A stretch of 64,000 nt of DNA from Candidatus Saccharicenans sp. Lineage in GTDB: Bacteria; Acidobacteriota; Aminicenantia; Aminicenantales; Saccharicenantaceae. A program made the translations under genes and the position numbers. Below the pieces are notes generated by a model that searched no databases, was not told where the DNA came from, and saw only the letters and a list, made by a program, of their open reading frames with translations. The stretch lies in assembly GCA_049659625.1 (NCBI GenBank), contig JBASPX010000045.1:96317-160316 (forward strand), given 5' to 3'. Below, piece by piece: positions 3,524 through 37,989 of this stretch (position 1 is the first letter of the stretch; each line of letters begins with the position of its first letter).

Positions 3524-4690
3524 ATGAGTTTATTGGCTGAAAACATTACAGTTAGAGCGGCCAGTCGCTTTCTGCTGGCAGCCCTTCTTATATTATTCTG
3601 TTTTGAAGCTCCGCTTATTTCTCAGACGACCGTTGCTAAAAAGAACGAACAGCAAATTGTGCTCACTGAAGAATCCGCTCCTGATCGGATGGGAATTTCG
3701 ATTCTTCCGATCGTTTACTATACTCCCGAGACAAGAATGGCCTTTGGACTGGGAAGTCTCCTCACCTACCGTTTTGGACTTCTTTTCAAAGAAGCCAGAC
3801 CGAGCACTCTTTTTCTGGGAGCGATTTACACTCAGGAAAAACAGTTTATCTTTCAGATAAAACCGGAAATCTATCTTCAGAACAACACTTTTTTTCTTTC
3901 GGGAAATTTTCTGGCTGAGAGGTTTCCCACAAACTTCTGGGGAATCGGGCCGGACACAGACGATTCGCTGGAAGAGTCCTATACTCCTCAGAGATACCTG
4001 GCAGAACTCGGGATTCAGAGAAAGCTCGGCCACAATTTTCCTCTCTATATTGGCCTTAGATACAGGCTGGAAAAAACCAGCATCTTAAAGACAGAACCTG
4101 GAAAGCTGCTCGACCAGGGGCTTGTCCCCGGGAGCCAGGGCGGATTTCTTTCCGGTCCGTCCTTCATCCTCAACTTTGATCAAAGGGATAACATTTTCTA
4201 CCCGGCCTCAGGACTGTATTTACAGGCAAATATTGCCTGGAACGACCATCTGTTTGGCAGCGATTTTGATTTTATAAATTTTAAGCTTGACCTCAGAAAT
4301 TATTATGAAGTGGCCAGAGAACAGATACTGACGGTTCAGGCTCTGTTTGAAAGCAACAGCGGAAACGTTCCTTTTTATCATCTGGCTCAACTTGGAGGAG
4401 ATTCCCTGCTGCGGGGTTTTTACAGCGGAAGGTACCGGGAAAAGAACCTGGCCGCTTTTCAGGCGGAATACCGTTTTCCTGTCTGGAAAAGATTCAGCGC
4501 GGTTGTTTTCGGTGCGATGGGCAGCCTGGCGGGACGGTTGAAGGATATTTCTTTTGACAATTTGAAGTATGCGGCCGGCTTCGGGTTCAGGTTCAAAGTG
4601 ATTCCCAGAGAAAAGGCCAATCTGAGAGTGGATTTTGCCTTTGGACCGGGAACCTACGGAATTTATTTCAAGGCCGGTGAGGCTTTTTAG
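3524..4690 (+). CDS. Omp85/BamA-TamA-family outer-membrane beta-barrel (Bac_surface_Ag domain) with no POTRA domains.
   Basis: Signal peptide, barrel motifs (GGDSLLRGFY, EYRFPVW, AAGFGFRF) and a terminal aromatic residue (..GEAF). At 388 aa it is barrel only. Confidence 0.7.
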   Translation: MSLLAENITVRAASRFLLAALLILFCFEAPLISQTTVAKKNEQQIVLTEESAPDRMGISILPIVYYTPETRMAFGLGSLLTYRFGLLFKEARPSTLFLGAIYTQEKQFIFQIKPEIYLQNNTFFLSGNFLAERFPTNFWGIGPDTDDSLEESYTPQRYLAELGIQRKLGHNFPLYIGLRYRLEKTSILKTEPGKLLDQGLVPGSQGGFLSGPSFILNFDQRDNIFYPASGLYLQANIAWNDHLFGSDFDFINFKLDLRNYYEVAREQILTVQALFESNSGNVPFYHLAQLGGDSLLRGFYSGRYREKNLAAFQAEYRFPVWKRFSAVVFGAMGSLAGRLKDISFDNLKYAAGFGFRFKVIPREKANLRVDFAFGPGTYGIYFKAGEAF

Positions 4691-18757: not shown

Positions 18758-21700
18758 TTATTTATACAGCGGATCCGGACTCACCCTGACCGTCCGGCTC
18801 ATTACCTCTTTGCCGTCTACCATCAGGATGACTTTATACAGCCCGGGGTCGACCATTCTTGGCCCGAAACGGCCAGACCCGAACTGTCCGGCCGGTTGTT
18901 CTGCCCGACGGTTTAAACTCCAGAATACTCTCTGAACTCCAGCCGAGACCGGACCGTTAATTTCCTGAACGACAGCGCCGTCAAAATCCCTGACCACCAG
19001 AGATACTTTCGAAGCCTGGTTTTTCAAATAATAATAGATATTCACTCCGACCGGAGGATTCGGAGCGCTGGCAAATTCACCGTAAGACTGGCCTCGCCGG
19101 TCATTCATCTGCCAGAGAATTCCTTCCTGAATCTCAAACAGATGGGCATCCTTCTTCAGGTTCTCCTCGGTAAACTCTTTGAAAGGATAGATGTCTATGA
19201 TGTAGATGCCACGCCCGTAAGTGGCCACCACCAGGTCACGGTCTCTTTTCTGAATGGCCAGGTCGTGGATGACCACATCCGGAACCTGGGGACCGGTCAG
19301 TCGCATCCAGTTTTTGCCCTGATTGAAAGTCACATAGAGTCCATAATCCGTGGCTAAATACAGAATATTCGGATTGTGCGGGTCTTCTTCGATGTCATTG
19401 GCCGGGTTGTTCATCCCGCCGGAAATGTCTTCCCAGGTTTTGCCCAGGTCTCTGGTGACGTAAACATAAGTTTTATCTTCGTTGTGGGTGCGGTAGCCAG
19501 AATAAACCACATAACAGGTGTACGCATCATGCTGACTCGGCAGGACTCTGACCACCCAGCGATCATAAGGAATCAGGGCTCCCTTTATGCCCGGTTTTGG
19601 TTTTCCTTTAGAATCGTAGAAACTGGCAGTGATGTTCGTCCAGGTATTACCGAAATTCGTGCTCAGCTGCAGATTGCCGTCATCGGTTCCTGCCCAGTAA
19701 ATCCCGGGCTTTTTCGGGGACTCGGCAAAAGTATAGATGGTGGCATACTGAAGGTTGGTCTTTTTGGAAAGATTAATTCTTTCCTTATCCTGCTTGCTGA
19801 GGTCGGGCGAGATTATTTCCCAGGTACCGGGGTCGCCGTGGCTCAGCGAGCGGTGGACGAACTGTGAACAGACGAAAACAATTCCTGGATTGTGCGGCGA
19901 AAGATAAATGGGCGCATTCCACTGAAAACGCAAAGGCGGGGCTCCGGCGGCTTCTTCCTCCGGAGTGTATCTCGGAGCCAGAGAAATGCTTTCGCCCGTC
20001 TTGAAATTCATCCGCCGGGAGGCTCCGAACTGACTTTCCCAGTAAATGAATTCCGGGTTCCACCAGTCGCGCACCACATAAAAACCGTCTCCTGACGGCA
20101 GGTAGAGCCAGTCAGCCGGATAAACTCCGTTGGGATTCCGGGTACGGGACGGGCCGAACCAGCAGCCGTTATCCTGCGTTCCACCCATAACGTTGTACGG
20201 TAATTCGTTATCAACCCAGACGTCGTAGAACTGCTGGGCCGGGATCGTTTCCTTCTGCGACCAGTGCTGCCCTCCATCCCAGCTCTCGCTCAAACCGCCG
20301 TCGTTGGCGTTGAGGATGTGTCTGGAATTGAGCGGATCTATCCAGACCGCCCTGGAATCCACGTGACATTTTTTGTTTGCCTCCCAGCTGGCAAACTGGA
20401 ACGTCCGGCCGGCATCGCGCGAAATGACCGTCCTGGTCTCGGGAGCTATCAGCACCTTATCGTCATTCGGGTCCACGGCTAACCGGCCGTAGTATCCGGC
20501 TTCCACCTGGTTAACCACTTCACTTCCACCCATCATCCGGTACTCGGTCATCCTTTTCCAGGTCTCTCCCTGGTCTTCTGAACGATATATAACACCGGAC
20601 TTTTTCACCGGCTGCATCACCCGGAGGGCTTCGGCGTAAAGGATATCCAGCAGGCAGCGGTTCAGGGTCTGGTAGCGTCCTTTAATCTGATCATAATCCC
20701 GGGCCAGATTCTCTCCCTCCTTTAACAGATCCAGCACATCCTTTCTTTCTTTATAAACATTCTTCGCCTTGCTGAAAACAGAGGCCGGATTAATTTTTAA
20801 CTTGACCAGCAAATTCACATCAGCCACCACGTTCTGAAGGTTATCGATAAGAAAGGCTTCGTTCTTGATGTACTTTTCGTCAAAAGTCAGGCTACCGATG
20901 AAATTCTTGCTGACCGAAACCTGAGCCCGGTCCCTGATGGTGAAGTTAACAGGGTCAAACCCTGAGGATTCAGCCAGCAGCGCTGTCAGCACCAGCCGGT
21001 TCAGTTTCAGCAGATCCTTCTCCCCTTCCTCAGCTCTTTTCAGAATTTTTTCGGTTTCTTCTACCGCAGAAAGTCCATTCTCATCCCCGGAATAAATCTT
21101 TCTGGCAGCAGCCAGCAAAGGTTTCCAGTTGACGGCTGACTTTTTTAGCAGGTCAGGGTCGCGCACCAGGTCGTTCAGTTTGTTCACCAGGTCCTCGACT
21201 TTATCCGCTCTGATATGTTCGAACCTGACGTGTTTGAGTAATTCAGGTTTTATCCTGTATTCCTTAAATCTGTTGAGATAAAAGCCGTCACGAAAGAGAG
21301 CTCTCTGGTTGTAAAGCGCTGCCCCTTCTCTTTCGCTCAACCCCAGGTTAACTTCTTCGTCCAGGCGCAGATAGACAATTCTGGGATTCTTCGGGAAAAT
21401 AGCCAGACCGTTTCTGCCGGTTTTAAGACGGTCAAGGTCAGGAAGACCGTTTGTTAATTTTTTCCAGGTCCTGCCTCCATCGGTTGTCTTCCAGAGATGA
21501 TTTCCCGGTTGCCGGTCGAGAAAGGTCCAGGTTCTTCTGTAAATCTTGTAAGCGGCGGCAATCACCACGTCCGAATTCGTCGGGTCCATGACAAAATCGC
21601 CCACCACCCTGTCCTTGAGGTCGAGAACCCTGGTCCAGGTCTTGCCCCCGTCAGTCGATTTGTAAAGGCCGCGCTCGCAGTCCTGGTCGGTATCGTCATA

Positions 21701-22267
21701 CAATTTTCCTTCAGCCGCCACGTAAACTATGTCCGGGTTTTTTGAATCCACTTCAATTTTGTTTATGAAGTAACTTTTTTCGAGACCGAGATGAGACCAG
21801 GTTTTACCGCCGTCAGTGGATTTCCACACGCCGTTACCACGAAAAGCCATCCGGCTGTGTATCGGCTCTCCTGTTCCCAGGTACAGTATATCAGGGTTCG
21901 AAGGCGCGATGGCCAGGTAACCCATGCTCTGATTGCCGTATTTTTCAAATATGGGTTCAAAATGAGTTCCGCCATCGACTGTTTTCCAGACACCACCAGA
22001 AGCAGTAAGAACATAATAAGTCTGGCTCTGTCCGGGAGGAACAGCGATGTTGGTGATCCGTCCGGAGAAAGACCAGGGGCCGATATGGCGCCAGGTAAAA
22101 AGTTCCAGGTCTTTCGCCGTCAGCGGGATTTTATCCGAAAAAACAGCTTTACCGGCGCTTTCCTTATCCTGCTGAAGACCGAGGCTTAGACCTGAGAGCA
22201 GGAGAATCAGCAGAACAACAATTCCAGGAAAACGCCAGTGTCTTTGAGCCTTAATCCTTTTCTCCAT
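18758..22267 (-). CDS. Giant secreted BNR/Asp-box repeat protein of 1169 aa (Sortilin/VPS10- or GH74-like beta-propellers) with a central alpha-helical insertion.
   Basis: At least 6 S/T-x-D-G-G-x-T-W boxes (TDGGKTW, TDGGRTW, WDGGQHW and others). There is a signal peptide, and a roughly 260-aa repeat-free Lys/Glu/Leu-rich segment in the middle. Confidence 0.7.
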   Translation of the reverse strand: MEKRIKAQRHWRFPGIVVLLILLLSGLSLGLQQDKESAGKAVFSDKIPLTAKDLELFTWRHIGPWSFSGRITNIAVPPGQSQTYYVLTASGGVWKTVDGGTHFEPIFEKYGNQSMGYLAIAPSNPDILYLGTGEPIHSRMAFRGNGVWKSTDGGKTWSHLGLEKSYFINKIEVDSKNPDIVYVAAEGKLYDDTDQDCERGLYKSTDGGKTWTRVLDLKDRVVGDFVMDPTNSDVVIAAAYKIYRRTWTFLDRQPGNHLWKTTDGGRTWKKLTNGLPDLDRLKTGRNGLAIFPKNPRIVYLRLDEEVNLGLSEREGAALYNQRALFRDGFYLNRFKEYRIKPELLKHVRFEHIRADKVEDLVNKLNDLVRDPDLLKKSAVNWKPLLAAARKIYSGDENGLSAVEETEKILKRAEEGEKDLLKLNRLVLTALLAESSGFDPVNFTIRDRAQVSVSKNFIGSLTFDEKYIKNEAFLIDNLQNVVADVNLLVKLKINPASVFSKAKNVYKERKDVLDLLKEGENLARDYDQIKGRYQTLNRCLLDILYAEALRVMQPVKKSGVIYRSEDQGETWKRMTEYRMMGGSEVVNQVEAGYYGRLAVDPNDDKVLIAPETRTVISRDAGRTFQFASWEANKKCHVDSRAVWIDPLNSRHILNANDGGLSESWDGGQHWSQKETIPAQQFYDVWVDNELPYNVMGGTQDNGCWFGPSRTRNPNGVYPADWLYLPSGDGFYVVRDWWNPEFIYWESQFGASRRMNFKTGESISLAPRYTPEEEAAGAPPLRFQWNAPIYLSPHNPGIVFVCSQFVHRSLSHGDPGTWEIISPDLSKQDKERINLSKKTNLQYATIYTFAESPKKPGIYWAGTDDGNLQLSTNFGNTWTNITASFYDSKGKPKPGIKGALIPYDRWVVRVLPSQHDAYTCYVVYSGYRTHNEDKTYVYVTRDLGKTWEDISGGMNNPANDIEEDPHNPNILYLATDYGLYVTFNQGKNWMRLTGPQVPDVVIHDLAIQKRDRDLVVATYGRGIYIIDIYPFKEFTEENLKKDAHLFEIQEGILWQMNDRRGQSYGEFASAPNPPVGVNIYYYLKNQASKVSLVVRDFDGAVVQEINGPVSAGVQRVFWSLNRRAEQPAGQFGSGRFGPRMVDPGLYKVILMVDGKEVMSRTVRVSPDPLYK

Positions 22268-31010: not shown

Positions 31011-31067
31011 TCGCTCATCCGGCCATTGCTTAAAAATTAAGAAAAATATGTTTTGCCGGAGGCAAAT

Positions 31068-32561
31068 ATGAAACAAAAGAGAAGGACCTTTGTGTCTGCT
31101 TTGACGATTTTATGTCTGCTGGCCGCAAGCACCCTTTTCCTGACGCTTCAGACCAAGGCGCAGGAAAAGATCATCCCGGAAGAAATAAAAAGGCAGGTCA
31201 GCAGCACGGATTATTCTTCCGTCAGAATAAAAAAATTTCCGCTGGCGGTGCAGTGCTGGACCTACCGCGGCTACACTTTTTTCGAAGCGCTGGAAAAGGT
31301 TAAAGCTCTGGGTATAGATTACGTTCAGGCATATCCCGGACAGAGGCTTTCCAGGGATCTGCCGCCGAACGTCGTCTTCAACCATAACCTCGATGAACAG
31401 CACTTAAAGCTCGTGCGGGAGAAACTCAATTCTCTGAAGATGAGCGTGGTGGCTTATGGCGTGGTTGACACCGGCCGCACAGAAGAGGAAATGAGGAAGG
31501 TTTTCGATTTTGCCCGCAAACTGGGGATCCGGGTGATAGTCACCGAACCCCGCGATGAAGATTATCCCGTCCTGAACAAACTGGTGAAAGAATACGACCT
31601 CAGAGTGGCCATACACAACCACCCCGAACCCAGCAAGTATGCCCATCCGGCCACAGTCCTTAAATACCTGAAGGAAGCCGATGAAAGAATTGGCGTCTGC
31701 GCCGACACCGGTCACTGGATGAGAGGGAACCTGCTGCCGGTTGAATGTCTCAGAATGTTAGCCGGCCGCATCTATGACGTTCATCTTAAGGACCGTAGCG
31801 ATTTTGGCACGAAAAAGGCGGAGGACGTGGCTTTTGGAAGCGGTCGGGCAGACATCAGGAAGGTGCTGGCCGAGCTCACCCTTCAGGATTATGACGGCTT
31901 CCTGACGTTCGAGTACGAAAACGAAAAGGAGGTTATGACTCCGGAGCCAGCGATAAAAAAAGGAATTGAGTTCATAAGAAGTGTTACCTACTATGAAGGC
32001 TACGAACAGTTGCTCAGCCGGTATCGAGGCCGTTATGAAAAACACGGCTGGAATCATTACGGACCTGGCTATTTTGAACTCGACCCGAAGACCGGAATTC
32101 TGAAGTCTCAGGGCGGCATGGGACTGCTCTGGTACAGCCGGAAAAAATTCAGGGATTTTGTTCTCGAGCTGGAGTTTAAGTGTTCCCGCAAAGACACCAA
32201 TTCAGGCGTTTTTCTCCGTGTGCCGGAAGTCCCGACCAGCGACGATTACATCTATCATTCGTTCGAAATCCAGATTTATGACGCCGGTGAAGGCATCCAC
32301 ATGACGGGTGCAGTTTATGACGCCCAGGCTCCCGCTCGCCTGGCTTCAAAGCCAACCGGCGAGTGGAATCATTTCCGGATTTCCTTCATAGGTGACCGAA
32401 TAACCGTCGAGCTCAACGGGGAAAAGGTGGTCGACTGGAAAGCAGAACCCCGGGGCAAGGTAAAAGATTTTGCCCGGGAAGGTTACATCGGACTGCAGAA
32501 TCATGACAGCCTGTCTCCGGTCTACTTCAGAAACATCTACATCAAAGAAATCAACAACTGA
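31068..32561 (+). CDS. Secreted fusion of a sugar-phosphate isomerase/epimerase-like (xylose-isomerase-like TIM barrel) domain with a DUF1080 (3-keto-disaccharide hydrolase / LamG-like) domain.
   Basis: Signal peptide, possibly Tat (KRRTFVSAL). TIM-barrel region IHNHPEP..GVCADTGHW. The C-terminal DUF1080 pattern is GWNHYGPGY..LWY..FVLELEFK..NSGVFLR..EIQIYD..GLQNHDS. A GGAGG RBS precedes ATG 31068. Confidence 0.7.
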   Translation: MKQKRRTFVSALTILCLLAASTLFLTLQTKAQEKIIPEEIKRQVSSTDYSSVRIKKFPLAVQCWTYRGYTFFEALEKVKALGIDYVQAYPGQRLSRDLPPNVVFNHNLDEQHLKLVREKLNSLKMSVVAYGVVDTGRTEEEMRKVFDFARKLGIRVIVTEPRDEDYPVLNKLVKEYDLRVAIHNHPEPSKYAHPATVLKYLKEADERIGVCADTGHWMRGNLLPVECLRMLAGRIYDVHLKDRSDFGTKKAEDVAFGSGRADIRKVLAELTLQDYDGFLTFEYENEKEVMTPEPAIKKGIEFIRSVTYYEGYEQLLSRYRGRYEKHGWNHYGPGYFELDPKTGILKSQGGMGLLWYSRKKFRDFVLELEFKCSRKDTNSGVFLRVPEVPTSDDYIYHSFEIQIYDAGEGIHMTGAVYDAQAPARLASKPTGEWNHFRISFIGDRITVELNGEKVVDWKAEPRGKVKDFAREGYIGLQNHDSLSPVYFRNIYIKEINN

Positions 32562-32563
32562 CA

Positions 32564-35500
32564 CTAAAAGCCCGGAGTGATGGTGAACTGCCAGTGCCAG
32601 CCCTTCCCCGGGCGGCTGAACGGATAGACGTAGTCAAAGCCGAGCACCAGCACTCCAAAAAGGTTGGTTCTAAGTCCGACTCCGGTGCTGGATACCGGTT
32701 TCTTCTCGCCGCCAAACCAGCTGGGCTTCTCCCCGCCATACCAGGCGGTGCCGATGTCGTAAAAGGCCAGAAATTCCAGCGGCCAGACGCCATAGTATCC
32801 TCTGCCGATCCCGAGAACCCTGAAGACAGGAAACCTCAGTTCGACGTTGGCCACCAGCATTCTGGAGCCCAGCAGGCGATTGAAATCAAAATAATCACTT
32901 GAGTTTTCATCAAACTCATTGTAATTGAAGCTGTTATAATCATATCCCCTGACCAGCGTTTCATAGCCGAGGAAAAGAGGCCAGAGACGTTGGTCGTTTC
33001 CTCCCTTTCCGTAGCGTCCATAATGCAGAACTCTGAAAGCAAAGGTGAAAGGTTTGGCCGGTATTATGTATCTCCGGTAATCAGCCAGCAGGCTGACGAA
33101 GTTCAGGTCTCCAAAGTTCGGCTGAACCTCGAGCAGGTAAGCCTGGCCGGTAATCGGACTGCAGGCACCGAAGAGCGAACTGTCGTATACCAGCGCGGCC
33201 GATACGTATCCGTATTTTATCGACGGAGGCGATGGCAGGTCGAGACGGTAAAGGTCGATCAGCATGAAATCGAGAGTGTAAATGTAACGTGTTAATCTCG
33301 AATTAAAGTCGATCAGATTAAAGCCTGCGGAAAATTCAACCCTTCTGAATACGTTAAACGGGTAGTAGGCAAAACCGCTCAGTTGATAGGCAATCTGACG
33401 GTTGAGATACTCTTCCTCAACGTAAACGGGAACGCCTCCCATTTCAGTGTAATAAGCGCCGTAAGAGCCATAAACATAAGGCACCCGCTGGAGGACCGCT
33501 CCCCAGTTCACCCGGTTTCTTGCGTTCATGTAGCCGACCAGAGCAAAACTGTCAATCAATTCGTAGTTGGTCTGGGCCATGGTCACCACTGTATGATAAC
33601 CGAGCATATCGCTCCAGAAAGCGGCTATGCCTCCGCCGGCGTAAGTCCCGTAGCGGTCAACGCCAACAGCCAGAGTGGGTCGGGTGATGTAGTCGAGAGA
33701 AAGTTTTGGCCGATAACCGGTTACAGGAAAGTCAGTTTCCCTCGGAAGTCCGTACAGAGGATTTCTTAACAGCCCGAGCAGGGCTCCTTCCGGCTGGGTT
33801 CTCGGCGGCAAAAGATTCAACGGTCTCTCTCCAAATTGAGCGATGGTCGGCTGTCCCTGGAGTTTTTCCGGTGAATCAATTAGATATATGGAGTAACTCC
33901 CGTTTTCATACACTGAAAGTGCCAGCCGCCGGCTGCCCTGAGAATAGGAAATAGCCGGGCTGAGCTCGGTTATCCCGCTGATGCCGGTAAACAGGTTGCT
34001 GAGCTGATAGATTTTCCCGTCCCTGAGGTCAACACGATAGAGGTCTGTTTTCCCGGTGTAATCAGAAAGGAAAAACATGCTCTGACCATCTTCTGACCAC
34101 TGCGGGTTGACATTCTTGCCGGAGGGAAATGCCAGAACTCTGGTAATCTGACCGGTTTCAACATCCAGCAAGCCCAGGTCGTAATTTCCGGGATCGAGCC
34201 ACTGCAGATTAGCGCTGAATCTTTCGGTGACAAAAGCTATCTTTTTGCTGTCTGGAGACCAAACCGGCTGTAGGTCGCCAAAACTATCTCTGGTCATCTG
34301 CTTTACCGTGTTATCTTCAAGGTCATAAATATAGATATCGGTTACCCCTCCAGAAAGAGCGGCAAAGGCAATTTTCTTTCCGTCCGGCGACCAGGATGGA
34401 TGCAGAATTTCTCCCAGCTCAGGAAAAGGAATTTCTCTTTCGATTTTCCCGGTCAGAGCATTCATGATGGTCAGCTGCGGCCGTCCCCTGCTAACGGTTC
34501 CAAGCACGATTCTCTGGCTGTCGGGCGCCCAGGCTCCGGCTGACCTGATGAATTGAATGCTCTCGAAATGGGGGTCTATGTCAGTTGAAGTGAGCTTCCT
34601 CAGAATCTTTCCGGTCTTCGGGTCTGCCAGATAGAGGTCAACCGAGAAAAGAGCTCGCGATGAAAAGAAAATCATGTGCTCCCCGTCCGGGCTTAAAACC
34701 GGGGAGATGTTGTAAGGGTTTTCTTCCAGGCCTTTGACCAGAAGACGTCCGAGACGATCCGGGGTTTCTGTCAGCGGAACCAGGCCTTTATAGGCTTCCT
34801 CCATTGATTTATGCCAGTCTTCAGAAAGCTTTTTAAGCGGTACTCCGAGAACTCCCTGAAGCACCGATTCATAGTCTCCACCCCGGGCAAGCATCCGGAA
34901 AATTTTGCCGATCATTTCATCTCCCCAGCGGCCGCCGATGTAAGCCCAGACTGCATGTCCGTATCTATAGGGGAAGTAACGGTAATAGTTCTCCAGCTTC
35001 CTGATCTGAGGCAGGTCTTTCCTCTTCCAGGTATCCCTCATCCACATTGAAGTCTGGGTGTCAACCGGCCCGATGGAGAGATATTCGGACAGACCCTCTA
35101 TCAGAAAGAGAGGGACCCTCAGCTCCGCCCCGGTGTATCTGGCCTGGTCCGAATGACCCTGACCGGCAATATCGTACTGAAAGGCGTGCACCAGCTCATG
35201 ACCGATGACATGGTCAGTTTCAGCCATGGAAACGCCGTACGGCAGAACTATTCTCCTCTTAAAGGATTCAGTCACGCCCCCTGTTCCTTCTCCCAGAGTC
35301 TCCGGGATGACGGTGGTTTGCTGAAATTCAGGGCTGCTGGAATAAATGATCAGGGCCTGCCGCCCCTTCAGTTCATGGTTGAAGATGCGGCTCAACCGGG
35401 CATACCAGCGCTCGGCCATCATCGCCGCCTGCTTTACCACTTCTTCATCTTCCTGGTAGAAATAGACATCAAAATGCCTGGTCTTCATTATTCTGAAATC

Positions 35501-35653
35501 AAATTTCCTGTACTGGACCTTGTTGCGGCCAAAATACTGAGCCTGAAGTGGAGCGAGCCAGACGAGCAAAAACAATGTTAAAAGCAAAGGAATAATCGCT
35601 GCTCGTTTATTTCTGAAAGAGTCCATTTGATTCCTCCTTCTTTTTTGTTTCAC
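32564..35653 (-). CDS. 1029-aa secreted fusion of a gluzincin (HExxH..E) metallopeptidase domain, a TolB-like PD40 beta-propeller, and a C-terminal Omp85-type beta-barrel.
   Basis: Signal peptide; HELVHAFQYD...FLIEGLSEY; PD40 repeats (LSPDGEHMIFF, WSPDGKKIAFA, WSPDSKKIAFV, WSEDGQSMFFLS). C-terminal barrel motifs LVRGYDY, VELRFPVF, FYDIGTAW and GVGLR, with a terminal ..ITPGF. These parallel the stand-alone barrel at 3524-4690. Confidence 0.7.
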   Translation of the reverse strand: MKQKRRRNQMDSFRNKRAAIIPLLLTLFLLVWLAPLQAQYFGRNKVQYRKFDFRIMKTRHFDVYFYQEDEEVVKQAAMMAERWYARLSRIFNHELKGRQALIIYSSSPEFQQTTVIPETLGEGTGGVTESFKRRIVLPYGVSMAETDHVIGHELVHAFQYDIAGQGHSDQARYTGAELRVPLFLIEGLSEYLSIGPVDTQTSMWMRDTWKRKDLPQIRKLENYYRYFPYRYGHAVWAYIGGRWGDEMIGKIFRMLARGGDYESVLQGVLGVPLKKLSEDWHKSMEEAYKGLVPLTETPDRLGRLLVKGLEENPYNISPVLSPDGEHMIFFSSRALFSVDLYLADPKTGKILRKLTSTDIDPHFESIQFIRSAGAWAPDSQRIVLGTVSRGRPQLTIMNALTGKIEREIPFPELGEILHPSWSPDGKKIAFAALSGGVTDIYIYDLEDNTVKQMTRDSFGDLQPVWSPDSKKIAFVTERFSANLQWLDPGNYDLGLLDVETGQITRVLAFPSGKNVNPQWSEDGQSMFFLSDYTGKTDLYRVDLRDGKIYQLSNLFTGISGITELSPAISYSQGSRRLALSVYENGSYSIYLIDSPEKLQGQPTIAQFGERPLNLLPPRTQPEGALLGLLRNPLYGLPRETDFPVTGYRPKLSLDYITRPTLAVGVDRYGTYAGGGIAAFWSDMLGYHTVVTMAQTNYELIDSFALVGYMNARNRVNWGAVLQRVPYVYGSYGAYYTEMGGVPVYVEEEYLNRQIAYQLSGFAYYPFNVFRRVEFSAGFNLIDFNSRLTRYIYTLDFMLIDLYRLDLPSPPSIKYGYVSAALVYDSSLFGACSPITGQAYLLEVQPNFGDLNFVSLLADYRRYIIPAKPFTFAFRVLHYGRYGKGGNDQRLWPLFLGYETLVRGYDYNSFNYNEFDENSSDYFDFNRLLGSRMLVANVELRFPVFRVLGIGRGYYGVWPLEFLAFYDIGTAWYGGEKPSWFGGEKKPVSSTGVGLRTNLFGVLVLGFDYVYPFSRPGKGWHWQFTITPGF

Positions 35654-36687: not shown

Positions 36688-37989
36688 ATGCTTTTCAGGA
36701 CACTGCTGATAGCAGCCATTATCATCGTATTTTACTCGCTGGCTAAATGGCGGAAACTCTCGGTGGAATTGAGCCTGCTGGCCGCTACCATCGGGGGAGC
36801 TCTGGCCGGTTCCATTTTCAGCTCGCCGCCGCCCGCAGAAATCCCGAGACATCTGGTTGAAGGCTCGTTTACCTATCTTGATGTCATCCTGGTTTTTTTT
36901 ACGGCCACCCTGTTCATAACGATCATCCAGAAATCTGGAGGAGTTGACTTTGCCGTCCGCCGCACCGTCGTTCGTTTTTATCGTTCCCGATTCCTGGCCC
37001 TGTTACTGCTGATGGTGATTGTTCTTATTCCCGGCGCTCTCACCGGAGCCGGCAGCGTTTCTCTACTGGTGGTGGGAGCTCCGGTGGCCCTGGCACTCAG
37101 AGGTCTCGGGGTTGAGGAAAAGAAAATCCCGGCGATTCTTTTTATTCTGGCCGGGCTGGCCGCCGCCGCTCCTCCGGTAAACATCTGGGCTATGATGCTG
37201 TGCGCCGGCACGGCCATTCCCTATGTCGGTTTTGAACTGCCGCTCGGGCTTCCGGTCATCATCCTCGGCATCCTGACTGTGGCAATCCTCGGAAGAAGGA
37301 AAGGCGCGGCGGAAATAGATTCTTTCCTGGAAAAGATAACCCCGCATCCGGGGATGAACTGGCTCCGGCTGCTCCTGCCGTTTCTGGTGTTCTTCGGTCT
37401 GGTTCTCGCCTACCGGCTATTTCCGTTCAACTTCCCTGTGCTCGGACTTCCTCTGGAATTCCTCACAGCTTCTCTTGTAGCTCTGGTTCTGAGTCCGGTC
37501 AGGTTGAACTTAATAAGGGTCGCTTCAGAGACCCTGCGCAAGTTGCTGCCGCTTCTGGCCATCATGGTGATAGTTGGCATGCTGCAGCAAATTCTTTCAG
37601 CCAGCGGGGTCAAGGGACTTATTTCTTATTCTGTTCTTATCATTCCGCTTGGACTTCTTTTCTGCCTGTTGCCCGTGATCATACCGGTTTCTGAAGGCGT
37701 TTTAACCTACGGCGGAGCGGCCATAATCGGCATTCCGCTCGTCTGGTATCTCAACTCTCTTGGCTACCACGCGACCGTGGTCATCTCCGGGCTCAGCCTT
37801 CTCTGGCCCCTCGGAGATGGGTTGCCTCCAACCGCTCTGATCGGAAGGTTGAGCGTGATGGTTTCAGGATATCAGGGTAAATACTGGCAGTTTCTTAAAG
37901 AAACCTGGATTCCCTGGTTGATAATCACGGCTACCGGTATGTTGATGATCATTTTCAGCGCAAAGCTTAAATTCCTGGTAACGGGATGA
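36688..37989 (+). CDS. Polytopic membrane permease (ion-transporter-superfamily / TRAP DctM-like fold). Substrate unknown.
   Basis: More than 10 predicted transmembrane helices and a Gly/Ala-rich composition. No catalytic motifs. Confidence 0.45.
   Translation: MLFRTLLIAAIIIVFYSLAKWRKLSVELSLLAATIGGALAGSIFSSPPPAEIPRHLVEGSFTYLDVILVFFTATLFITIIQKSGGVDFAVRRTVVRFYRSRFLALLLLMVIVLIPGALTGAGSVSLLVVGAPVALALRGLGVEEKKIPAILFILAGLAAAAPPVNIWAMMLCAGTAIPYVGFELPLGLPVIILGILTVAILGRRKGAAEIDSFLEKITPHPGMNWLRLLLPFLVFFGLVLAYRLFPFNFPVLGLPLEFLTASLVALVLSPVRLNLIRVASETLRKLLPLLAIMVIVGMLQQILSASGVKGLISYSVLIIPLGLLFCLLPVIIPVSEGVLTYGGAAIIGIPLVWYLNSLGYHATVVISGLSLLWPLGDGLPPTALIGRLSVMVSGYQGKYWQFLKETWIPWLIITATGMLMIIFSAKLKFLVTG

Follow-up and report, generated by a model that had tools for sequence, protein, structure and literature searches.

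The 64,000-nucleotide window analyzed here, a stretch of contig JBASPX010000045.1 from a Candidatus Saccharicenans genome assembly, contains on its minus strand a single uninterrupted open reading frame (32564..35653) that encodes 1029 residues counted from its GTG codon, with no internal stops and a uniform base composition over the whole gene. Behind a probable signal peptide, the protein joins a gluzincin (clan MA) zinc-peptidase domain (residues 39-300; 34754..35539), a six-bladed TolB-like PD40 β-propeller (residues 303-592; 33878..34747), a linker of about 80 residues (residues 593-673; 33635..33877) and a predicted Omp85-type 16-strand β-barrel ending in a terminal Phe (residues 674-1029; 32567..33634). 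A preliminary description of this DNA had proposed such a three-module fusion, and the open reading frame, hidden Markov model (HMM) matches and an AlphaFold2 model all bear it out. Residue numbers below follow the 1029-residue frame from the GTG, and all features of the gene lie on the minus strand.

Translation probably begins at the ATG at 35626 (M10 of the listed frame), giving a product of 1020 residues, because a GGAGG Shine-Dalgarno core ends 6 nt 5' of this codon (within GAAGGAGGA, 35632..35640, by direct reading of the sequence), M10 is nearly invariant in an alignment of 47 homologs, and the closest homolog, a Candidatus Saccharicenans protein of 97% identity, is itself 1020 residues long. 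Residues 10-38 (35540..35626, including the probable start codon) were judged by eye to form a probable Sec signal peptide: a K/R-rich n-region is followed by the hydrophobic stretch IIPLLLTLFLLVWL and then by the presumptive cleavage site LQA/QY, at which A38 and Q39 are invariant in the same alignment.

The peptidase region matches Pfam Peptidase_MA_2 at E 4e-7, and the N-terminus alone reaches 32.9 bits, above the gathering cutoff of 32.4; weaker Pfam matches in this region are to DUF6055 and BSP. As had been proposed from the HELVH..E pattern, the domain has the features of a clan MA gluzincin, namely HExxH, a downstream Glu and a thermolysin-like fold. The HELVH zinc-binding and catalytic motif (residues 152-156; 35186..35200) contributes H152, E153 and H156, and an EGLSE segment (35084..35098) contributes E186 and E190. 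All five residues are invariant in the 47 homologs and at least 94% conserved in 52 diverse representatives sharing 34-52% identity with the query, the set to which the conservation values below refer. E186 is the probable third zinc ligand, since its position about 30 residues past H156 corresponds to gluzincin spacing, and Y229, inside an invariant F-P-Y-R, is a candidate transition-state tyrosine. From this pattern of residues, we consider the peptidase likely to be catalytically competent. The nearest catalytic-domain structures are lugdulysin (M30), the M9 collagenases and the M1 aminopeptidases, at 10-15% sequence identity. A profile of the peptidase segment found nothing significant among PDB sequences; herpesvirus gL and TIM44, which appeared at E ~0.3, were dismissed as noise.

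Conservation, expressed as the mean fraction of the commonest residue, was 0.55 for the peptidase, 0.49 for the barrel and 0.39 for the linker, and the best-conserved parts of the protein are peptidase segments. The highest value in the whole protein (0.76) falls on the first 16 mature residues, AQYFGRNKVQYxxFDF (residues 38-53; 35491-35539), and the second highest (0.67) on a loop with GEGTGGVTESFKRR (residues 107-134; 35252-35335) that holds an invariant GEGTGGVTE. Both are unmodelled by AlphaFold2, which leaves the mature N-terminus unplaced at a predicted local distance difference test score (pLDDT) below 50. This N-terminus may be an epitope for docking or strand augmentation, or may belong to the active-site cleft. 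Within the peptidase, GVTES sits 23 residues upstream of H152. The M1 aminopeptidases carry GxMEN at about the same position relative to HExxH and, by this analogy, the placing hints at exopeptidase-type substrate anchoring, as a lead only.

The middle domain carries four Pfam PD40 (PF07676) repeats (E 8e-22), in agreement with the at least four repeats first noted, and has TolB as its best structural match, at 20-23% identity. The NCBIfam TolB model TIGR02800 matches only partially, over the propeller positions (132.5 bits against a cutoff of 343); the protein is thus a carrier of a TolB-like propeller rather than a full-length TolB equivalog, which would include the N-terminal TolA-binding domain. 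Public names of the homologs conflict, ranging over peptidase S9, BamA/TamA family outer membrane protein, basic secretory protein-like, Tol biopolymer transport system component and DUF6055, and none of them reflects the three-module architecture. We rejected the assignment to peptidase S9: the sole related match is to DPPIV_N (PF00930) at residues 439-477, and the Pfam scan of the protein gave no match to the Peptidase_S9 catalytic domain. Judged by these matches, the name is a misannotation driven by the propeller.

The linker between propeller and barrel is where a POTRA domain would stand in BamA, TamA, TpsB proteins or PlpD, directly N-terminal to the barrel. No POTRA HMM matched at E<=10 in the C-terminal 428 residues or in six isolated linkers, and these six linker sequences gave no Pfam match of any kind at the same threshold. 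The predicted model of residues 593-673 (pLDDT 41-79) shows one 7-residue helix and short strands, with no β-α-α-β-β unit, and of all mature segments the linker shows the lowest conservation over the family. A cryptic POTRA within these 80 residues was rejected on the HMM scans, the model and the low conservation together, and the absence of a POTRA claimed at the outset holds up. A highly conserved linker, as seen in an alignment of Aminicenantes only, was likewise rejected, the signal being lost in the diverse set.

The barrel was harder to place by sequence. Pfam Omp85 (PF01103), one of the models put forward for checking it, gave no match on the whole protein (E<=1) or on the C-terminal 428 residues (E<=10), and a 16-sequence barrel profile found 0 matches among PDB sequences at E<=10. 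NCBIfam BamA (TIGR03303), by comparison, matches the target at E 3.6e-6 over residues ~845-1014. Among 16 relatives, TIGR03303 matches 13 (best 1e-11), Omp85_fam 12 and PF01103 four (best 4e-10), and many homologs carry a precomputed PF01103. DSSP assignment on the model yielded 11 strands (674-881), a loop containing VRGY (882-930) and then 5 strands, which supplies the 16-strand barrel of the BamA fold that the preliminary description had suggested modelling for. In BamA, L6 joins strands 11 and 12. The lid-lock motifs, whose definitions come from the BamA/TamA/FhaC literature, are (V/I)RG(Y/F) in loop 6 and (F/G)xDxG on strand 13, and both are present. VRGY (residues 901-904; 32942..32953) is invariant in the 47 homologs, with R902, G903 and Y904 at least 94% conserved in the diverse set, and FYDIG (residues 964-968; 32750..32764) lies on predicted strand 13, with F964, D966 and G968 invariant in both sets. 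Fold comparison places the barrel nearer to the insertases BamA, TamA and Sam50 than to the TpsB translocators. Together, these data characterize the target as a divergent Omp85 member by profile and predicted fold, not a non-member.

A second barrel in the window (3524-4690, plus strand) is a stand-alone Omp85 barrel of 388 residues with a signal-like N-terminus, without POTRA or any other N-terminal domain, that matches Pfam Omp85 at E 5e-21 and has its counterpart in the 'noNterm' Omp85 class of Heinz & Lithgow. The two barrels had been said to carry the same motifs. This stands for (L/V)RG(Y/F) and E(L/Y)RFP, but not for FYDIG and GVGLR, which are not literally shared. Their pairwise similarity is not significant (BLASTP E 0.8), and hhalign gave E 0.053 with an alignment confined to the two shared motifs. 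Close paralogy was rejected on these comparisons, and the common motifs read as superfamily hallmarks, not as a sign of close kinship.

Next, we determined how widely this architecture occurs. A word-indexed search returned at least 7999 homologs at E<=1e-5 among 8000 candidates, the best 120 of which, from Saccharicenans, Aminicenantes and Acidobacteriota, are ~1000-1050 residues long (one 816-residue partial sequence excepted). In species-representative genomes, at least 574 of 600 candidates were confirmed, in a scan that was seeded on the peptidase motifs and is biased towards intact HExxH. Nearly all of the best 80 matches in that scan are full-length (residues ~36-1029), and they come from Aminicenantes, Vicinamibacterales, Gemmatimonadota, Bacteroidota, Ignavibacteria and one Betaproteobacteria metagenome-assembled genome. 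These surveys bear directly on whether the gene is an artefact, either a mis-assembly chimera or separate genes for peptidase, TolB-like and Omp85 proteins joined by run-through, for which only the unusual length and composition speak. Hundreds of independent assemblies, spanning several phyla, contain the same single open reading frame of ~1000-1100 residues at 43-97% identity, and the intact frame and even base composition of the present copy are at odds with a chimera. With the homolog search, the species-genome scan and the barrel-profile search described below, we regard an artefact as refuted, leaving it a practically negligible chance.

As an unbiased test, a barrel-only profile was run against 1.84 billion cluster representatives (50% identity), giving 2025 matches at E<=1e-3, 1219 at E<=1e-10 and 531 at E<=1e-30. 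By this measure the barrel clade is discrete and does not merge into ordinary BamA/TamA. Among the best 150 barrel-profile matches listed, 53 are at least 950 residues long, and 52 of these carry HExxH near residue 140. [VIL]RGY is found in 46/53, FxDxG in 51/53 and an aromatic C-terminal residue in 52/53. The intact active site is therefore obligately coupled to the barrel clade, and since HExxH is kept in 52 of 53 proteins selected by their barrel, proteolysis appears to be under selection and tied to the barrel. We rejected the shorter matches as domain-loss variants: their N-termini begin within the propeller or peptidase, marking them as gene fragments. A possible exception among the short matches is P0215 (422 residues), which may be a barrel-only variant, with a signal-peptide-like N-terminus directly before the barrel; P0191 (1284 residues), longer in body and with HELGH at residue 58, is a possible architectural variant.

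This coupling also bears on a non-proteolytic role, in which the protein would be an assembly platform resembling a BamA-BamB fusion, with the barrel as insertase, the propeller as scaffold and the peptidase-like domain as a binding module only. The BamA-like fold and motifs of the barrel fit this proposal, as does the use of propellers such as that of BamB as protein-interaction platforms (PMC13067283), and an assembly function was suggested by Heinz & Lithgow (PMC4104836). It is, however, difficult to reconcile with HExxH, the downstream Glu and the candidate Tyr229, which are invariant down to 34% identity, where pseudo-enzymes normally lose such residues, or with the finding that peptidase segments are the best-conserved parts. 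The propeller, moreover, is TolB-like with six PD40 blades, not BamB-like; the BamB propeller has eight. POTRA domains for receiving substrates are also missing, and we consider a purely structural role improbable.

The gene stands alone among its local neighbors, outside any tol-pal operon. Its flanking genes are unrelated to it, encoding a GFO/IDH/MocA oxidoreductase, a TIM-barrel/3-keto-disaccharide hydrolase fusion and a radical-SAM protein. The fusion gene (31053-32561, plus strand) is the convergent downstream neighbor, the two stop codons lying 2 nt apart, and codes for a xylose-isomerase-like TIM barrel fused to a 3-keto-disaccharide hydrolase domain behind a signal-like N-terminus. 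No partner gene (TamB-, TpsA-, Tol- or Pal-like) emerged from a comparison of 80 loci, and no neighbor family recurred in more than 8 of the 80; judging by this gene context, the gene functions without a partner of its own in an operon. Elsewhere in the window, 36688-37989 (plus strand) encodes a strongly hydrophobic, apparently polytopic membrane protein of 433 residues with no Pfam match at E<=1e-3. Tandem Peptidase_C69 (dipeptidase) paralogs occupy 39414-41111 and 41120-42886 (plus strand; E 1e-61 and 4e-64), and 18758-22267 (minus strand) encodes a 1169-residue protein with Sortilin/Vps10 and BNR/Asp-box repeats.

The architecture has a counterpart in the literature. Heinz & Lithgow 2014 (Front Microbiol, PMC4104836) divided Omp85/TpsB proteins into ten subfamilies, one of which, WD40-Omp85 or 'WD40-like', has an N-terminal TolB-like propeller and is among the non-POTRA architectures. 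Their Table S2 gives PF07676 repeats with or without PF01103 for this subfamily, and Table S3 lists ~100 members with empty POTRA columns. For each member, Table S3 reports Phyre2 matches to BamA/TamA (~100%) and TolB (100%), together with a 'best aminopeptidase hit' column naming 1z5h, 4kxd, 4fgm, 3qnf or the collagenase entries 4ar1/4ar9 at ~99%. The genera include Rhodothermus, Salinibacter, Cytophaga, Anaeromyxobacter, Sorangium, Geobacter, Vibrio, Gemmatimonas, Caldithrix, Ignavibacterium and Cloacimonas. The main text of that study treats only the propeller, and the peptidase is present as a supplementary column alone. The subfamily name is cited in the introduction of a 2016 paper, and a 2026 review of the β-barrel assembly machinery (BAM; PMC13067283) does not discuss it. 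In the full-text literature, we found no functional or structural study of the peptidase-propeller-barrel architecture, only the 2014 catalogue and passing citations.

The target shows each of the corresponding features: a TolB-like PD40/WD40 propeller lies N-terminal to a non-POTRA Omp85 barrel, and the N-terminal region is aminopeptidase/collagenase-like (gluzincin), as in Table S3. We are highly confident that it belongs to WD40-Omp85, because the architecture is identical, the template matches are the same and the taxa overlap. The preliminary description had held that the architecture could be placed in no characterised family; it can be placed in one that was catalogued in 2014 (PMC4104836), though not one that has been characterised experimentally.

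How the modules might work together can be outlined as follows. After Sec export and cleavage of the signal peptide, the C-terminal 16-strand barrel would be inserted into the outer membrane, with the C-terminal aromatic residue serving as the BAM β-signal, and would anchor the catalytically competent gluzincin peptidase and the six-bladed TolB-like propeller. The peptidase-propeller unit would hang from the inner (periplasmic) face of the membrane, where the propeller could act as a substrate- or partner-binding, filtering or gating module and the peptidase could cleave unfolded envelope proteins or peptides. Such a protein would be a one-polypeptide version of a BAM-associated quality-control protease, by functional analogy with BepA for BAM. 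Zinc metalloproteases of this kind, BepA, YcaL and LoiP, police outer-membrane protein assembly at BAM (PMC13067283). For the whole model, a WD40-Omp85 member that is an outer-membrane-anchored, periplasmic and active zinc peptidase, we see the odds as evenly balanced. A periplasmic location of the soluble part, which follows from Omp85 topology as read from the predicted model, is taken by itself moderately probable. In BamA and TamA, strand 1 starts on the periplasmic side. We infer attachment from that side because exactly 11 strands precede the VRGY loop, as in BamA, so that strand 1 would start in the periplasm. The closeness of the barrel to insertases over TpsB leans weakly towards the same side, and the closest match of the propeller, TolB, is periplasmic.

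Several observations weigh against this placement. The orientation derives only from homology and from a strand count on the AlphaFold2 model, in which the stretch before the barrel (651-673) has a pLDDT of ~41-44 and includes an extra short strand (660-665) of unclear placement. The catalytic domain is M30/M9/M1-like, not M48, so that the BepA analogy is functional speculation, and the literature searched holds no experiment on any WD40-Omp85 member. PlpD, by comparison, demonstrates export of an enzyme at the N-terminus by an Omp85-type barrel. Finally, the soluble 560 residues contain 0 Cys in 37 of the 52 diverse representatives, compared with ~6.5 expected. Cys depletion is a hallmark of autotransporter passengers, and here it does not tell a periplasmic from a surface location.

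Some of these observations lend themselves to a self-exporting surface protease, in which the barrel, alone or with BAM, would translocate its own peptidase-propeller as a POTRA-less analogue of type Vd (PlpD), and the exposed or released enzyme would break down extracellular proteins as a source of nutrients. PlpD is a precedent for placing an enzyme on the N-terminal side of an Omp85-type barrel (PMC4104836), the nearly Cys-free region resembles a passenger, and the poorly predicted strand 660-665 leaves the entry into the barrel unsettled. The closest catalytic structures include secreted endopeptidases (lugdulysin M30 and the M9 collagenases), the absence of conserved partner genes fits an autonomous system, and Saccharicenans and other Aminicenantes live by polymer degradation, in keeping with a window rich in glycoside hydrolases and peptidases. 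Export would, however, have to proceed with neither a POTRA nor a recognisable pore-spanning helix, and through a linker whose conservation, the lowest of the mature segments, is unexpected for a translocation-critical element. A six-bladed propeller and a 260-residue peptidase would have to cross unfolded, the lid-lock motifs that hold L6 in the lumen are fully conserved, and TolB-like propellers are typically periplasmic. Surface exposure or self-translocation, as first proposed for this protein, is the less parsimonious reading, since strand 1 of the barrel starts periplasmic by BamA homology and the barrel is nearer to BamA, TamA and Sam50 than to TpsB translocators; we consider it unlikely. 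More doubtful still is the broader proposal that WD40-Omp85 proteins as a class export themselves without POTRA, in effect as a new subtype of type V secretion, each barrel threading its own Cys-free peptidase-propeller to the surface and so providing many environmental diderm phyla with an autonomous surface protease.

Omp85 proteins are the universal builders of outer membranes, bacterial and organellar, and nearly all knowledge of them comes from members with POTRA domains. WD40-Omp85, a branch without them, is large and widespread (at least 574 species genomes, ~2000 clusters at 50% identity) and joins an intact zinc protease to a BamA-like barrel. If the protease is periplasmic, the family could equip phyla that perhaps lack BepA-type systems with a built-in protease for envelope quality control; if it lies exposed at the surface, the family would extend type V secretion. 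The question of the membrane side and role of the protease belongs to the family, not to a single locus. The present locus adds a clean Aminicenantes example and not a new kind of system; at the level of the family, the analysis adds the coupling of active site and barrel, the lack of partner genes, the Cys depletion and the ultra-conserved mature N-terminus.

Compared with BamA, TamA and Sam50, the target lacks POTRA domains, carries an enzyme and a propeller, has no conserved TamB- or BamD-like neighbor and is very divergent in sequence, being missed by Pfam Omp85 and PDB-sequence searches. Like PlpD (type Vd), it carries a hydrolase on the N-terminal side of an Omp85-type barrel, all in one polypeptide. 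PlpD, however, consists of a patatin lipase with one POTRA between passenger and barrel, and its passenger has been shown at the surface, whereas the target has a zinc peptidase and a propeller without POTRA. Pfam scans of the target found neither patatin nor POTRA, in line with the initial judgement that the protein is not PlpD-like or TpsB-like. Metallo-Omp85 (PF00149 phosphoesterase-Omp85; PMC4104836) likewise lacks POTRA and has an enzyme fused to an Omp85 barrel, but with a calcineurin-like metallophosphoesterase, no propeller and a barrel of another cluster.

Among the soluble counterparts, TolB has the same kind of six-bladed PD40 propeller, whereas the target lacks the N-terminal α/β TolA-binding domain and has its propeller covalently joined to barrel and peptidase. 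In the model favored here, BepA, YcaL and LoiP would offer an analogy, each combining an HExxH zinc protease with an interaction module at the periplasmic face of the outer membrane beside an Omp85 barrel. They differ in being M48 enzymes and separate polypeptides, with TPR or a lipid anchor in place of propeller and barrel (PMC13067283). Relative to lugdulysin (M30), M9 and M1, the target has low identity and no significant sequence match to solved peptidases; it belongs to the loosely defined Peptidase_MA_2/DUF6055/BSP sequence neighborhood. The closest likeness is to WD40-Omp85, with which the target shares the module order gluzincin, TolB-like propeller and BamA/TamA-like barrel, the absence of POTRA, the size, the Pfam signature and the phyla (Bacteroidota, Ignavibacteria, Gemmatimonadota, Acidobacteria and Deltaproteobacteria). 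We found no architectural difference, and the target comes from Aminicenantes (Ca. Saccharicenans), a lineage not named in the available part of the 2014 tables. The protein adds an Aminicenantes member to a subfamily whose naming and tabulation, with the peptidase part included, date from 2014.

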